Shown: positions 14,235 through 52,700, counted from the first letter of the stretch. The stretch: DNA of 64,000 nt from Lama glama (GCA_028534125.1 CM052816.1:43960001-44024000); one strand, 5' to 3'. A program made the numbers and translations. Notes: generated from the letters alone by a model not told the origin.

Positions 14235-14620
14235 TCTTTTTTTAACTGAAGTAACATTGGTTTATAGCATTGTGTACATTTCACACGTACAATGTCATAT
14301 TTTTACTTCTAAATACCCTACTGCGTGCTCACCACCAGAAATTTAGTTCCCAATCATCATCATATAGCTGATCCCCTTTATCCACTTCATCCTCCCCGAC
14401 CCCTTCCCTTCTAGTAACCACTACTGTTCTCTGTAACTACATGTTTGTTTTTGTTTATGGCTTTGTTTATTTATTTTGTTTACCTCTTGTGTTCCACAAA
14501 TGAGTGAAATCATACGATATTTGTCTTTTTCCGTCTGACTTATTTCACTTCATATAATACCCTCAAGATCCATCCATGTTGTTGCAAATAGCAAGATTTT
14601 ATCTTTTTTCTTTTTTTTTT
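14235..14620 (-). mobile_element. 5'-truncated L1 (3' UTR and ORF2 end) inserted in an L2 remnant
   Basis: T-rich tail, then ...ccacaaatgagtgaaatcatacgatatttgtctttttccgtctgacttatttcactt...ccatgttgttgcaaat, the reverse of the L1 ORF2 terminus. An L2 end (aatatttattgaatgaataaa) follows. Confidence 0.8.
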
Positions 14621-30171: not shown

Positions 30172-31262
30172 AATCCTAGCCAAATCCTATATATAGTAAA
30201 ACACACTTCTCAGTAAGTTCTTTTCAATAACCTAGAACACTTGTCCAACAAAGGCCAGATATGATCTCTATTTCCAATCTGCCTAGGAAACTTCACGTAT
30301 TGATTCCATCAAGGGTGAATCTGGGAAATGAAAACTGACAGCAAGAATGAGTCATTTCCATGTAACACCTTCTCCTGATGATGTCACCAGCCATGGGAGG
30401 CCCCCCTGTGCTTTATGGATTCTCATCTCTGACATAGCTTATTTTTCACTTGTGACTATATTGACAGTACACAGACATCTGAAAGGAGGTCATTTCTCCT
30501 GTTCCTTACTCACTGACACAACTACTCTACAGATTCAAAGATTGACTGCTTCTAAGATAAGGTAAAACCTACTTTGTGAATGTATTTCTCTTGTTAATTT
30601 AGATGAAGTTCTAGTTTCTTTTTAAAGGTCATCTTCTTTTCAGCGCTACCCAGACAGGGGTCCATACGGTGTTGCTCTGGATTTCCATTGTAACTTAAAG
30701 GGAAACTTTCACAATGTCCGGAGCCCCTGATGTCCTGCAAATGAAGGAGGAGGATGTCCTCAAATTCCTTGCAGCAGGAACTCACTTAGGTGGCACCAAC
30801 CTTGATTTCAAAATGGAGCAGTGTATCTACAAAAGGAAAAATGATGGCATCTACATCACAAATCTGAAAAGAACCTGGGAGAAGCTTCTGTTGGCAGCTC
30901 GTGCCATTGAAAACCCAGCTGATGTCAGTGTCACATCCTCCAGGAATACTGGCCAGCGAGATGTGCTGAAGTTTGCTGGTGCCACTGGAGCTACTCCCAT
31001 TACTGGCCGCTTCACGCCTGGAACCTTCACTACCCAGATCCAGGCAGCTTTCCGGGAGCTGAGGCTTCTGGTGGTTACTGATCCCAGGGCTGACCACCAG
31101 CCTCTCATAGAGGCATCTTACGTTAACCTGCCTACGATTGCTCAGTGTAACACGGTCTCACTTCTGCACTACGTGGACATTGCCATCCGGAGAAACAACA
31201 AGGTAACAGTTTTATGATCTGAACTAGAGCTTGAGAATAAGTGCTCTAGAAACAGGCATTCC

Positions 31263-31417
31263 TCGGCACATTGTTAGAGCTTGGAGTTGAGCCCTCTGGC
31301 TGGCCGATGAGCACATATATGTAGGTAGTGTGCTACATGAGGGGCAATTTTTTCGCTTAACACCACAGGATTCTCTGGCCCAGTGAGTGGAGTTTGATAG
31401 TAATACTTGCTACGAGT
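31263..31417 (+). ncRNA. SNORA62: Box H/ACA snoRNA SNORA62 (E2) retrocopy, probably inactive
   Basis: gcacattgttagagcttggagttgag...tggccgatga...gtaggtagtgtgctacatgaggggcaa...ctctggcccagtgagtggagtttgatagtaatacttgctacgagt matches recalled SNORA62. Basal stem gcacattg/tagtgtgc, H box ACATGA at 31335-31340, and the ACA box reads ACG (31412-31414), 3 nt from the end. Confidence 0.9.
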
Positions 31418-31418
31418 G

Positions 31419-31441
31419 AAATAACTAACTAACTAACTAAC
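31419..31441 (+). repeat. (AACT)n / A-rich tail of the retrocopy
   Basis: aaataactaactaactaactaac directly after the snoRNA end, consistent with a decayed poly(A). Confidence 0.7.
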
Positions 31442-31794
31442 TTAGATTAATTCTATTCACTTTCATGCCATAGAAACTTTCCTTGTGTTGGCAGTAAGAA
31501 ATTATTGGCTGATAGCCTAATTTTTTCTGAACAATCCTAGCCACCATCTTAACAAGGGAGAAAAAAACGCAGAATAATTTTAAGTGTCTCTGCAGAGGCT
31601 CCTTGTGACATGACATTCTCTTCACACTGTAAGTTTCCCCCCTAGCGATCTGGTTGATGGACTTACACTTCTTAACTGGTCCCTATAGGACTTTTCAGGC
31701 AACTTAACCAGGGATAATCTTGTTCATCCTACCTTTTTGGCACAAAAATGTTTCAAAGACAATACATTTACATGAAATGTATTTATTCAACAAA

Positions 31795-38267: not shown

Positions 38268-38776
38268 TTTTTTTAAAGTGTAAACTTTTAGTAAAGTATA
38301 AAATAGCTACAGAAAAGTAAAATATCATAAATGTATATCATGAGTTTGTGACAAGTGAACATATATATGTAACCAGCCCCAAGATTAAGAAATAGAACTT
38401 TACTAGACCCCAAATGCCACTTGTACCTCTTTCTAGTCACTGTCCTCTTTCCTGACTTCTAGCACTAAAGATTGGAGGCATCTATTTTTATAATTTATAT
38501 AAATACAATTATGCAGTACATAAAAATTTTTGCTCACCTTCTCTATTTAAAAATATGTTTTTAGATTCATAGATATTTTTTGTGTAGTATAGTTCATTCT
38601 CGTTGCTGATTGATTTTCTGTTGTCTTTGCTTTTCAGTAGTCTTCCTATAGTGTGCTTTTGTATAGTTTTCTTTTGTAATTTATTCTGCATGGATTTCAT
38701 AGCACTTCTTAAATCTATTGGTCAGTGCCTTTTATAAATTTTGGAAAATTTGCAGCCAATATCTCTTCAAATACTC
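38268..38776 (-). mobile_element. Old L1 (L1ME-like) remnant, left part of the host of the full-length L1
   Basis: T-run, tacagaaaagt...gtaaccagccccaagattaagaaatagaac (old L1 3' UTR), then ORF1-like ttttggaaaatttgcagccaatatctcttcaaata. Confidence 0.65.
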
Positions 38777-39123
38777 TTTTTAAATTGAGGTATAGTCAGT
38801 TTACAATGTTGTGTCAATTTCTGGTATACAGCACAATGCTTCAGTCATACATGAACATATATATATTCATTTTCATATTCTTTTTCACTGTCAGCTACTA
38901 CAAGATATTGAATATAGTTCCCTGTGCTATACAGTAGAAACTTATTTATCTATTTTATATATATTACACATCTGCAAATCTCAAACTCCCAGTTTATCTC
39001 TTCCCAAATCTCTAACTCCCAGTTTATCTCTTCCCCAACCCCTCCCCAATGGTAACCATAAGTTTGTTTCCTATGTCTCTGAGTCTGTTTCTGTTTTGTA
39101 AATAAGTTCTTTGTCTTTTTTTT

Positions 39124-42100
39124 TTAGATTGCACATATAAGTGATAACATATGGTATTTGTCTTTCTCTTTCTGACTGACTTCACTTAGAATAACATTCT
39201 CTAGGTCCATCCCTGTTGCTGCAAATGGCATTATTTTATCATTTTTATGGCTGAGTAGTATGCCATTGTGTAAATATACCACAGCTTCTTTATCCAGTCA
39301 TCTGTCGACGGACATTTAGGTTGTTTCCATGTCTTGGCTATTGTAAATAGTGCTACTATGAACATTAGGGTGCAGGTGTCTTTCTAAATTAATGTTCCCT
39401 TTGGATATATGCCCAGGAGTGAGATTGCTAGATCATATGGTAAGTCTATTTTCAGTCTTTTGAGGAATCTCTATACTGTTTCCCACAATGGCTGCACCAA
39501 ACTGCATTCTCACCAACAGTGTAAGAGAGTTCCCTTACCCTCTCCAGCATTTATCACTTGTGGACTTTTGAATGATGGCCATTCTGATTGGTGTGAGATG
39601 ATACCTCATTGTAGTTTTGATTTGCATCTCCCTGATAATTAGTAATATTGAGCATTTTTTTGATGTGCCTTTTGTCCATTCATGTCTTCATTGGAGTATT
39701 GCTTTTTTAGGTCTTCTGCCCATTTTTGAATTTTTTTTATTATTAAGTCTTATGAGCTATTTATATATTCTGGGAATTAAGCCCTTGTCAGTTTCATGTT
39801 TTGCAAATATTTTCTCCCATTCTGTAGGTTGTTGTTTTATTTTGCTTATGGTTCCTTTGCTGTGCAAAAGCTTGTTAAGTTTAATTAGTTTAATTTTTGC
39901 TTTTGTTTCTATTGCTTGTATAGACTGCTCTAGGAGAACATTGCTGAGATGTATGTGAGATAATGTTTGCCTATGTTTTCTTCTCGGAGATTTGTTGTCT
40001 CTTGTCTTATGTTTAAGTCTTTGATCCATTTTGAGTTTATTTTTGTGTATGGTGTGATGGGGTATTCTAACTTCATTGATTTACATGCAGCTGTCCTGTT
40101 TTACCAACACCATTTGCTGGAGACTGTCATTACTCCATTATATGTTCTTGCCTCCTTTGTAAAAGATTAATTGACCAAAAATTTGTGGGTTCATTTCTGG
40201 GCTCTCTGTTCCATTGATCCATACGTCTGTTTTTGTAGCAGTACCATGCTGACTACATTTTGATTACTGTAGCTCTGTAGTATTGTCTGAAGTCTGGGAG
40301 AGTTATTCCTCCAGCTTCTTTCTTTTTCTTCACTATTGCTTTGGCAATTCTGGTCTTTTGTGATTACCTATAAATTTCAATATGATTTGTTCTAGTTCTG
40401 TGAAATATGTCCTAGGTAATTTGATAGGGATCGCATTAAATCTATAGATTGCCTTGGGCAGTATGGCCATTTTAACAATATTAATTCTTCCAATCCAGGA
40501 GCATGGGATATTTTTCTATTTCTTTAAGTCGTCTTTAATTTTCTTAATCAATGTTTTGTAGTTCTCCATGTATAAGTCTTTCCCCTCTTTGGTTAGATTT
40601 ATTCCTAGGTATTTTATTAATTTGGGTGCTATTTTAAAAGGGATTATTTCTTTACTTTCTTTTCCTTTTGATTCATTGTTAGTGTAAAGAAATGCAACTG
40701 ATTTCTGTACATTAATCTTGTATCCTGCTACTTTGCTGAGTTCTTGTATTAGCTCTAGTAATTTTTGTGTGGAGCTTTTAGCATTTTCTATATATAGTAT
40801 CATGTCATCAGCATATATTGACAATTTTACCTCTTCTTTTCCTATTTGAATCCCTTTTATTTCTTTCTCTTGCCTGATTGCTGTGGCTAGGATTTCCAAG
40901 ACTATGTTGAATAGGAGTGGTGATAGTGGGCAGCCTTGTCTTGTCCCAGATTTGAGTGGGAAGCTTTTGAGTTTTTCACCATTGAGTACTATGCTGGCTG
41001 TAGGTTTGTCATAAATAGCTTTTATTATGTTGAGATATGTTCCCTCTATACCCACTTTGATAAGGGTTTTTATCATAAATGGGTGTTGAATTTTACCAAA
41101 TGCTTTTTCTTCATCCATTGAGATGATCATGTGGTTTTTGTCCTTCCTTTTGTGGATGTGGTTTATCACATTGATTGATTTCCATATGTTGAACCATCCT
41201 TGTGTTCCTGGGAGGAACCCCACTTGATCATGCTAAATGATCTTATTTATGTACTGTTGGATTCTGTTTGCTAATATTTTGTTGAGGATTTTTGCATCTA
41301 TGTTCATTAGTGAATATTGGTCTGTAACTTTCTTTTCTGATAGTGTCTTTGTCTGATGTTGGTATCAGGATGATAGTGGCTTCATAGAATGAGTTTGGGA
41401 GTACTCCCTCCTTTTCAATCTTCTGGAATAGTTTCAGAAGGACCAGTATGAATTCTTCTTTGTATGTTTGGTAGAATTCCCCAGTGAAGCAATCTGGTCC
41501 TGGACTTTTATTTGTAGGGAGGTTTTCTATTGCAAATTCTATTTTATTTCTAGTGATTGTTCTGTTCAAGTGGTCAATTTCTTCTTGAGTCAGTCTTGGT
41601 GGACTGTATGTTTCCAGACATTTGTCCATTTCTTTTAGGTTATCTGTTTTGTTTCCATACAGTTGTTCATAGTATTCTCATATGATATTTTGTATTTCTG
41701 TGGGATTGGTTGTAATTTCTTCATTTTTCTTTCTTATTTTCCTTATTTGTGCTTTCTCTTCTCTTCTCTTTGTAACCTTGGCCAGAGGTTTGTCAACTTC
41801 ATGTACTCTTTCAAACAACCTCTTGGTTTGATTGATTTTTTCTATTGTTTGTTTAATCTCTATTTTATTTATTTCCTCCCTGATCTTTATCATTTCTTTC
41901 CTTCTGTTGACTTTTGGTTTTGTTTGCTCTTCTTTTTCTAATTCTTTTGGTTGGTAGATTAGATTGTACATTTGAGATTATTCTTTTCTGAGAAAAACCT
42001 ATATCATTATGGATTACCTCTTAGGACTGCTTTTGCTACATTTCATAGATTCTGTGTGGTTGTGTTTTAATTGTCATTTGTCTCAAAGTATTTTTTAATT

Positions 42101-49594: not shown

Positions 49595-49720
49595 TTTTTT
49601 TAAATTTATTTAAAAAATTTTTTATTTGATATAGTCAGTTTACAATGTTGTGTCAATTTCTGGTGCACAGAACAATTCTTCAGTCATACATGAATATGCA
49701 TGTATTCATTTTCATATTCT
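49595..49720 (-). mobile_element. Very short 5'-truncated young L1 with target-site duplication
   Basis: atagtcagtttacaatgttgtgtcaatttctggt... is near-identical to 38792 onward. Flanked by tgattttacccatatct (49578-49594) and tgatttttacgcatatct (49721-49738). Confidence 0.85.
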
Positions 49721-52700
49721 TGATTTTTACGCATATCTTTATAATTGGTTGGTTAGGTATATCAAAATTGTGGTAAATATTTACCTTAAAATCATGAAAT
49801 TTTTAGAACTTCAAAGGACTCTCAAAGGACCCTGGGTCCAACTCCTTTATTTTACTTCCTCTATAAAAACTCATTAGGAAAATAATGCTATTTTTCACAT
49901 TCATTTGTAAAAGGAACACAGATTTCTATGCTCTGTCACCCAGCCCAGCACTCTCAATGAAAGGGGTGACCTTGAATTGAACTGTAGAAAGTAAATGGAA
50001 GAAAAGTTTACTGGAAAAGTTTAGCAAGGATACAGAAGATGAATGCATATATTTGTGTTGGACACCCTTCCCTGTGCTGCATATTCAAAGGGATGGGATC
50101 ATGTTATTTATTGTATTTTTCAGATCATTTGCAATGTTAATTTATATGAGTTTGATATCCCTTTTGTCTTTTAGTTGTGTGTTATTCTGAGCAATCCCTG
50201 GGGAAGCAAAGGATTTATATGCTTTGTGTACATGTTCTGCAGACTAAGCGCTCTGGCATAATTATTTTTGGCACTCACTAACTGATTAAAACATCCAATT
50301 TAACTCATGATCAGTAAGATTAAACCTTTTTAATATACCTCAAAAGTAAATTATCATTTACTACTCAAACATCCCTTTATGCACATGTCCCCAATAAAGC
50401 TGTTCTTTTTTCGTTAATGTACCTTTTAACGAGGATTCCCTTTTATTTCTTCCTTTGGGCAAAACTGCCTTATCCTTTATAGAGAGGTAGGAACAAAGAT
50501 GAGATGGAGGCTGACTAGATGAGTACATGGTTTCTAATGTCATACCAATTACGTCTTTATTTTTGTTATATTCTGTAAAGAATTTGCTGTTAAGGAAAAA
50601 TATCCCTGCTTTGAGTTTACTTGGTGGGTAGACAAATGGGAACAGTTAGAAGAAAATACTATTTGAACAAAAAATCATTTACATGACTTGGAAAAAGTGT
50701 CATCTTTTATTTCATCTTAAATTAGTTACTTTTAAAAACTTGAGAGTTACATTTCAGTCTTGCAGTGAATCCCCCTTTGCAGAATATCCAAAACACATTT
50801 CAGTATTAGAACGATTTGAAGAGGAAAAATAACTTCCCAAGGATTAAAAAAGCATGATATAATCCTAAATTAGAATAATTGCAATTTGTAAGTCCTCTAA
50901 CCTGCTGAGGACCCTTGCAGTGGTTTATCACTGTAATGAGAGAGGAGGAAAATAAAATGTAATAGATAACACACATTGGTTAAGTTAGGGCCTCCTGGAG
51001 CTTTGAAACAGTCATAGGTGTAAGCACCTCACACACTGAGGGAGGCAGGGGGTGAATCAGATTAGTAGAATCCTCCTGTGTGGATGCTAGAGTGTTACTG
51101 TGTACAAATGTCATAGTTACTCCCTTTTATGCATAGGATTAACATCAAATGAAACAAGAATTATGGAGTAGGGCTTTAGATAGAAAATAGGTCAAGTCAA
51201 TGCAATAAATATCCTGTCAGAATTTTGATCCAGATTTACAAATACTTCACCAGATTGCTAATAAGCTTGTAGCCTTGCATGTAAATATTTGAACATTATG
51301 AAAAAGTGCTTCTGCATTAAACAACACTCCTGTGTCCCAAATAGGTTGAGCTACTGAAATGTTGTCATAAACCAGGCAGACGGGACACTTTTCTGGAATA
51401 TGTGGTAGACAGACCAAAAGCACATGCCAGAACTTTTTCCTAAAATGTCAGGAAGTCAAAAATCTCAAAATTAACTGAATTTAGCAGTCAGTTACACAAA
51501 TTTTAAGAGCTACAAGAAGCAAGCTTACAAAAGCTTTGCATAGCTTCCCATTCTTGGATCTAGAAGAGTTGGCGTCTTCTGGAAATACCAAGAAAAAAAC
51601 TTGGTCCCCTTTAAAAAAAAAGTCTTTAAAATGACTGTACCCATAGCTTGGTCCCTACTTCAAGATATATTCTGGACCTGGGACTATCCTGAGGAGTCAC
51701 TGATAAGTGTGATTTTTTTATTAGGTGTTTTTGTGCCAGTGCTCTGGACCTTAGGGGCTGCAGGCATTGCATAAGCTCACTTGGCAAACATTTTATCCAT
51801 TTCCCCATTCCATATAAAATTAGAGAATACTTCACTGTTGAGGTATAAGATAATGAATTCCTTGGTTAGTATATTAGTTTCAACAGTTTCTACTCTACCA
51901 TTGAAACTATTTATGATCTTGATTTTTTCCCTTAGTTTTTTGGCCAAGTACACGGCTAAAGACTTCAAGTAAAACATTTTTTTTTTAAACATGAAAACAG
52001 TAATAATAAATGTTCTACTTTCTCTCTTCCGGCCCTACCAGCTATTATACTGAACACCTGATGTATTTACTTGATGCTAATTGATGAAATGATAATGGGC
52101 ATCCTTTGCTAATAAGAAGTAAGTTCAATTAGTGAGCACACCATTTGTAAAAAGGCAGTGTTCTATCACTTTCCAAGTGTGTGATTTATTTTTAACTATG
52201 AATGAAAACTTAGCTTTGAATGTGGGAGGGGTAAGCTTGTTGTGCTTCAGTTTTCATAAATGGGCAACTTTTGGCACAGGTGCCAAAGAGAGAACGAGAA
52301 TAGATGTCTCAAGCCTTGGTTGTTAGGGTCTGATCATAAGCGTCGGGGTGTAGAGTTCATGGATTATTCATGTGTAATTACAGATAGCTATTGTGCTCCT
52401 TTAAATCATCCCGATGGCCCATTATGGTCCATAACAACTGAAATAGCAATTGTCATAGGCAGGTTTGGGCTCTGTCACAGAGTGTGGACTCTAATCAATG
52501 GTGATGAATGGTAAAATTCTACGTCAAGCAGTCCAAAGTCTGGTTGGCCCCCTCCATAAATCTGTACAAACACCAAGCAGAGCAGCTGCAGGGTCTGGAA
52601 ATTTAAAAGCCAACACTTGCCTTACCCCCTACATGCATTTACCTCTGTCAAAGTTTAAAAAAAAAGAAAAAAGGGAGGAGGAGGAAGGAGAAAAGGAAAT

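Follow-up and report, generated by a model that had tools for sequence, protein, structure and literature searches.

A 64,000-nt stretch of the Lama glama genome (GCA_028534125.1 CM052816.1:43960001-44024000), here called the window, carries on its + strand, at positions 30636-31442, a partly spliced copy of the RPSA gene that ends at the 3' end of SNORA62, an H/ACA small nucleolar RNA (snoRNA) hosted by RPSA itself. This element is quite probably an L1-type retrocopy of one RPSA-SNORA62 RNA that was capped, had lost introns 1-3, kept intron 4 unspliced, had been trimmed to the boundary of the H/ACA small nucleolar ribonucleoprotein (snoRNP), and bore an A tail, and which would thus resemble the hybrid mRNA-snoRNA transcripts (hmsnoRNAs) of yeast. 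The anatomy of the copy, its parent gene, its exact end point, and an A-rich tail that the parent does not template carry this reading, and all four are plain from a comparison of the copy with its parent.

The copy begins with RPSA exon 1, containing the 5' terminal oligopyrimidine (TOP) tract and 5' untranslated region (30636-30680, with 39/44 matches to parental exon 1), and its first base corresponds to the mRNA cap site. Exon 1 is joined exactly to exon 2 (30681-30846, 94% identity to the parent, with the ATG at 30714-30716), which is followed by exon 3 (30847-30956), where 9 nt have been lost in frame, and by exon 4 (30957-31202, 90.3% identity), whose 3' end reads ...AACAACAAG. Past exon 4, the 5' splice site of intron 4 is kept as GTAACA, and the unspliced 5' part of that intron (31203-31262) leads into a full-length copy of SNORA62 (also called E2; 31263-31417). 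This in turn gives way directly to an A-rich tail, GAAA(TAAC)5 (31418-31442), in which Tandem Repeats Finder (TRF) reports a repeat of period 4 and 5.2 copies at 31422-31442. Counting exons 1-4 and the 60 nt of intron, the host sequence before the snoRNA amounts to 627 nt, and the partial retention of intron 4 makes the copy "semi-processed."

The identity of the snoRNA is clear. The Rfam family RF00091 (SNORA62/SNORA6) matches the + strand at 31263-31417 with 119.3 bits, against a gathering score of 80, over model positions 1-154 of 154, and this is the sole Rfam match within the 64-kb window. The snoRNA copy lies nearer to the parental SNORA62 (81.9-82.5% identity) than to SNORA6 (67.1%). 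The original prediction, made from the sequence of the window alone, had placed a complete H/ACA snoRNA here; its coordinates hold to the base and the full model is indeed covered, but the ACA box now reads ACG, the snoRNA ending in ACGAGT in the copy versus ACAAGT in the parent and in most other copies. Because of this mutation, the SNORA62 copy is probably dead although complete in length. As judged from its sequence, this part of the element is a snoRNA pseudogene, since the intact ACA box 3 nt from the end, which is needed for function, is missing.

A DNA search of the animal's own genome (2.35 Gb) with the element as query, in which the best 40 of 127 candidates were scored, located the parent. 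Among the matches scored, all but one go no further than query position 572, where exon 4 ends. The lone exception, on contig C16, matches query positions 320-782, that is, exon 4 through the end of the snoRNA. This locus (G000:C16, minus strand, locus L021, of which 10 kb were fetched) is a seven-exon RPSA gene with a SNORA6-type match of 143.5 bits in intron 2 and a SNORA62-type match of 150.1 bits in intron 4, so that SNORA62 is indeed hosted in the intron after exon 4, as had been predicted. The copy sits on contig C1, and the intron-containing parent on contig C16. With the exon bounds of the parent, including those used for exon 3 above, set by GT-AG rules and the open reading frame, introns 1-3 prove to be present in the parent and removed from the copy, where exons 1-2-3-4 are joined exactly. 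The expectation that these introns had truly been spliced out, rather than being absent from the parent, is thus borne out. Furthermore, exon 4, intron 4, and the snoRNA are colinear in copy and parent: the 5' splice site reads GTAACA in the copy versus GTAACG in the parent, and the non-coding stretch before the snoRNA, predicted at ~60 nt, is 60 nt in the copy versus 63 nt in the parent (82.8% identity).

At the 3' end, the BLAST alignment to the parent stops at window position 31417, the last base of the parental snoRNA match, and this point is the last Rfam model position in the copy and the parent alike. Beyond the snoRNA, the parent reads CCCTTTTTAATG, which is not A-rich on direct reading of the sequence, and the copy reads GAAA(TAAC)5. 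The tail, which had been noticed at once in the window, starts directly behind ACGAGT, is short and degenerate, is not templated by the parent, and is read as a decayed oligo(A) or poly(A) tract. A global alignment had hinted that similarity continues into the downstream intron, but local alignment with controls rules this out: between the 3' flank (31418-31540) and the downstream parental intron there is no similarity, 1889 of 2000 shuffles and 297 of 307 genomic controls scoring at least as high. Homology is therefore lost at the end of the snoRNA, as the original prediction required.

The absence of downstream RPSA exons, also predicted, holds for the entire 64-kb window, in which no sequence of exons 5-7 was found. 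The possibility that these exons had been displaced by an insertion was considered and rejected; three matches of the window to downstream intron 4 all fall on intron positions 510-1006, and since those positions also match the flanks of unrelated loci, they represent a dispersed repeat. This repeat, of about 500 nt, occurs in the window at 38766-39318, 49609-49721, and 14562-14608. The parental RPSA intron 4 has it in its downstream part, and several unrelated loci have it in their flanks.

The 5' end of the copy is that of an mRNA. The copy starts at CTTTTC, as do other full-length RPSA retrocopies in the genome; those that are complete at the 5' end start at CTTTTC(C), often with an extra G before it, which is a known cap signature. 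The carrying over of promoter sequence was also considered, and the region upstream of the copy (30585-30634) resembles the parental promoter only at chance level, 550 of 2000 shuffles scoring as well. This shared start, together with the lack of promoter similarity upstream, argues that the template had an authentic mRNA 5' end, in agreement with the original prediction.

The several parts of the copy appear to have drifted together. Exon identity between copy and parent ranges from 88.6 to 96.3%. The Jukes-Cantor distance to the parent is 0.196 for the intron part and 0.200 for the snoRNA, and the exons differ from the parent by a synonymous distance (dS) of 0.160 and a nonsynonymous distance (dN) of 0.053. 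The agreement of the neutral-site distances across exons, intron, and snoRNA fits one retroposition event followed by drift, and a silent-site distance of about 0.16-0.20 would correspond to an age of tens of millions of years, a value that hinges on the mutation rate of the lineage. The RPSA frame is still open for 167 codons (30714-31217), running through RPSA residues and then VTVL before a TGA five codons into the intron. Selection on this frame was considered as a candidate explanation and rejected; the pairwise dN/dS is 0.33 (19 nonsynonymous and 17 synonymous differences), a value that a neutrally evolving copy could show against a constrained parent, the expectation for such a pair being about 0.5, so that there is no case for function. 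The copy has drifted neutrally since insertion and is now a pseudogene.

Other copies of SNORA62 in the genome bear on the end point. A query made of the parental 63-nt intron piece plus SNORA62 found 16 places, which are the parent, the SNORA6 paralogue, the copy in the window, and 13 other dispersed copies. Among 11 other SNORA62 retrocopy loci that were inspected (10 distinct, as two are identical), 10 have an A-rich tract at or within a few nucleotides of ACAAGT/C, and one has a degenerate end. These dispersed copies are classical type-1 snoRNA retroposons. Their tails at the same nucleotide indicate that an A tail at this position has repeatedly served retroposition in this lineage and tie the tailing to snoRNA 3' processing. 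That the template of the copy in the window was itself trimmed to the snoRNP boundary and adenylated, as the original prediction proposed, we still infer, now with the support of these 10 loci.

Some features of these loci deserve mention in their own right. One type-1 SNORA62 retrocopy (L025, G000:C25:26737749-26737899) has a tail of A5 followed by a (TCAA)n-like microsatellite, which parallels the (TAAC)n tail of the copy in the window. The two identical loci (L028, G000:C260159:552922-553035, minus strand, and L029, 414245-414358, plus strand) share their flanks as well, are inverted with respect to each other, and lie about 138 kb apart, which looks like an inverted segmental duplication or an assembly duplicate. 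A genome-wide search found no dispersed copy of SNORA6, the snoRNA of RPSA intron 2; SNORA62 has at least 14, so that the two snoRNAs of the same host gene differ strongly in mobility. Among the other RPSA retrocopies, two (L003 and L006, G000:C7:59829305-59829881 and 59832038-59832549, minus strand) are separated by about 2.1 kb, share their orientation, and are 93-100% identical per exon to the C16 gene. One of the pair spans exons 1-7 in full, and the match of the other breaks off in exon 4; either a very young retrocopy that was partly duplicated or an assembly effect could account for them. Finally, a search of sequencing runs with a stretch of parental intron 4 (L021:2761-4051) returned 24 runs, in which 14 RNA or probable-RNA runs hold 0.12-0.20 of the sampled words. 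A share of 12-20% is about what the edge of exon 4, the 63-nt intron piece, and the snoRNA would add up to, and it is not counted as evidence of a live RNA.

Whether such a copy had been described before was left undecided in the original prediction. A study of sheep RPSA (Van den Broeke et al. 2010, PMC2850357) reported that the pseudogenes RPSAP8 and RPSAP9 contain a portion of intron 4 that includes SNORA62, called this "a remarkable observation," and named them semi-processed pseudogenes. The supplementary alignment of that study shows RPSAP9 running from the mRNA 5' end through exons 1-4 to ...CAACAAG, with nothing beyond, and RPSAP8 having exons 5-7 only (PMC2850357). RPSAP9 lacks a poly(A) signal and a bovine orthologue, matches sheep RPSA at 98% identity, and is flanked at its 3' side by a (CATA)n repeat (PMC2850357); it consequently represents a separate, young event. 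It shares with the llama copy its host gene, an mRNA 5' start, exons 1-4, a SNORA62-bearing piece of intron 4, and a simple repeat on the 3' side, but it is much younger and its SNORA62 boxes are intact (PMC2850357). RPSAP9 likewise retains an open frame, of 171 codons. In the available text of that paper, there is no statement that RPSAP9 ends at the snoRNA 3' end and no link to snoRNA processing (PMC2850357). Thus, the architecture is in print, whereas in a literature search the hmsnoRNA reading of such retrocopies was not found, the sheep paper giving the structure only.

The copy also stands apart from the snoRNA retroposons (snoRTs) that have been classified. Weber (2006, PMC1687206) described three types of snoRT, all of which start at the mature snoRNA 5' end; type 3 continues into the downstream intron and processed downstream exons. 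U99 was the sole snoRNA found there with substantial upstream sequence (PMC1687206). In the survey of Luo and Li (2006, PMC1802619), 5 of 182 H/ACA retrogenes were of the 5'-flank type, and the examples described as containing exons have 3' exons. Like snoRT type 1, the llama copy is an L1-type element with an H/ACA snoRNA that ends at the mature snoRNA end and then has a short A-rich tail, and like type 3 it carries processed exons of the host gene (PMC1687206). However, it is the mirror image of type 3, consisting of the cap site, upstream exons, upstream intron, and snoRNA end. Because 627 nt of host sequence, rather than a mature snoRNA 5' start, precede the snoRNA, the copy is not filed under types 1-3. 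It is therefore a further semi-processed, L1-type RPSA pseudogene with SNORA62, of an architecture already published and outside the three-type snoRT scheme.

As an RNA, the presumed template finds its closest likeness in the hmsnoRNAs of Saccharomyces cerevisiae (Liu et al. 2022, PMC9351541), which have the same anatomy and, in yeast, a 3' end made by the exosome. The copy has this hmsnoRNA anatomy, that is, host 5' exons and an unspliced intron ending at the mature snoRNA 3' end, and here it is known from a DNA copy alone. In yeast, hmsnoRNAs have been seen as RNA after splicing was inactivated, mostly without poly(A) (PMC9351541), whereas the llama case is a DNA fossil; the llama copy also differs in that three upstream introns have been removed and that there is an A tail. 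In a 2024 review, hmsnoRNAs are described for yeast, and those of human cells are presented as hypothetical (PMC11028025). Human transcripts that retain snoRNAs (PMC12152556, PMC9394076) are like the presumed template in keeping an intron that contains an H/ACA snoRNA, but they are full-length polyadenylated isoforms or 3' fragments starting near the snoRNA, and in the text available no 5' fragment ending at the snoRNA is among them (PMC12152556). The same text makes no mention of RPSA or SNORA62 (PMC12152556).

Taken together, these results suggest the following model for the copy. Transcription would have started at the normal capped start site of RPSA, and introns 1-3, including the intron with SNORA6, would have been spliced out of the template. 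Meanwhile, an H/ACA pre-snoRNP would have assembled during transcription on SNORA62, only 63 nt from the start of intron 4; H/ACA RNP assembly that is co-transcriptional and independent of splicing has been reported in studies cited in PMC9351541. If splicing of intron 4 then failed, or if the transcript was cut or terminated downstream, 3'-to-5' exonucleases could have trimmed the RNA back to the protecting snoRNP, much as the yeast hmsnoRNAs are bound by snoRNP and acquire the mature snoRNA 3' end through exosome trimming (PMC9351541). The template 3' end would be the mature SNORA62 3' end, three nucleotides past the ACA box. A short A tail may then have been added at this end, as PAPD5 does for mammalian H/ACA snoRNAs, whose 3' processing involves adenylation by PAPD5 and trimming by PARN (PMC5519232). 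Finally, the L1 reverse transcriptase would have primed on this tail in a germline or early-embryo cell.

Retrocopies truncated at the 3' end commonly arise through intronic polyadenylation or through internal priming. It could be argued that the copy goes back to an RPSA pre-mRNA that retained intron 4 and was prematurely cleaved and polyadenylated within it, or to L1 priming internally on an A-rich genomic tract there, and that the match to the snoRNA end is accidental. The ancestral intron 4 may have differed from that of the present parent, which leaves some room for this. However, the present parent has CCCTTTTTAATG behind the snoRNA, and no AATAAA or ATTAAA was found within the preceding 40 nt, the last of the parental snoRNA, when the sequence was read directly; as had been expected, the parent as it stands offers neither an A-rich tract nor a canonical poly(A) signal that would explain the end point. 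In addition, the end coincides to the nucleotide with the end of the Rfam model in both copy and parent, and 10 of the 11 other SNORA62 retrocopy loci are tailed at or within a few nucleotides of the same position. This explanation is consequently judged unlikely.

A second explanation supposes a longer retrocopy, made from an mRNA that retained intron 4 and had exons 5-7 and a normal poly(A) tail, which subsequently lost its 3' part through a deletion or rearrangement whose boundary fell by chance at the snoRNA. Full-length mRNA isoforms that retain snoRNA introns are documented in human cells (PMC12152556), and the element, which already carries a 9-nt deletion, is old enough for secondary deletions. 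With roughly 1,000 nt of remaining intron and about 500 nt of exons available, the breakpoint would nevertheless have to lie no more than about 1 nt from the snoRNA end and be followed directly by an A-rich tract. There is no remnant of exons 5-7 or of RPSA-specific downstream intron in the window, and sheep RPSAP9 independently lacks exons 5-7 (PMC2850357). A later deletion is thus very improbable.

The last explanation, a chimera in which the L1 reverse transcriptase copied an A-tailed mature SNORA62 and then jumped to a fragment of RPSA RNA, has hardly any likelihood, as no RNA species is known with an end where the acceptor RNA would need one, no more than 3 nt from the genomic position immediately before the snoRNA, and as all segments are colinear with one gene and show the same neutral distance throughout. 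Its only support within the copy is a loss of 3 nt (a 4-column alignment gap) exactly at the intron/snoRNA 5' boundary, but small indels also occur elsewhere in the copy and this one is read as a later deletion; L1 template-switch chimeras are a known class (cited in PMC1802619).

It should be noted that several observations weigh against retroposition of a single hybrid RNA as the origin of the copy, the same 3-nt loss at the boundary among them. The tail is only 25 nt long and today is a (TAAC)n microsatellite, so that its origin as an A tail is deduced rather than seen. The intron used for comparison is that of the present-day parent, and intron 4 may have differed at the time of insertion. 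No target-site duplication could be identified securely. The strongest candidate, itself weak, is a direct repeat that pairs 30595-30621, 14 nt off the insert, with 31437-31463 (21/27 matches) and is weakly above chance, with 25 of 2000 shuffles and 6 of 391 genomic controls scoring as well, and no repeat abutting the 5' end of the insert (30635) exceeds 6/8 matches. A TTTTT/AAAGG sequence just upstream of the insert resembles an L1 nick site, without a partner at the 3' side. As both flanks are unique in the genome, there is also no paralogous empty site. Furthermore, the architecture is rare. Neither intron 4 nor the snoRNA is present in any of the 18 other RPSA retrocopies fetched; exon 4 is joined straight to exon 5 in 17 of these loci, and in the remaining one (L006) the match breaks off within exon 4. 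The 13 other dispersed SNORA62 copies all start at or inside the snoRNA, and none has upstream intron. A shallow look at two other host genes, by DNA search with 200 nt of upstream sequence plus the snoRNA, found no copy running from upstream sequence into SNORA64 in RPS2 or SNORA63 in EIF4A2. Rfam-family searches of the genome for these two snoRNAs, in which only 43-49 of >100,000 candidates were scored, gave, among the matches scored, 2 for SNORA64 and 4 for SNORA63, paired at one or two loci.

The element has decayed into a pseudogene and shows no sign of function. What gives it value is that it is a second, independent fossil of a mammalian hybrid mRNA-snoRNA transcript. Such transcripts have been shown directly as RNA only in yeast with disabled splicing, and the retrocopy would be a physical record of one in the mammalian germline, with a tail that L1 could use for priming. 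Two independent records from the same intron, in this genome and in sheep, suggest that RPSA intron 4 yields hybrid RNA repeatedly. On a broader hypothesis, which is somewhat more likely than not, an RPSA-SNORA62 RNA that is capped, spliced upstream, terminated by the snoRNP, and oligoadenylated is a normal low-level product of mammalian germ cells, a true mammalian hmsnoRNA, and was captured by L1 independently in at least two lineages (this genome and sheep RPSAP9). If so, snoRNA retroposons would include a fourth, mirror-image class made up of such copies. A search of mammalian genomes for retrocopies that run from the host cap site to the snoRNA 3' end offers a cheap route to testing the idea, and if it is true, such genome mining could yield a catalogue of germline hmsnoRNAs made without any perturbation of splicing.

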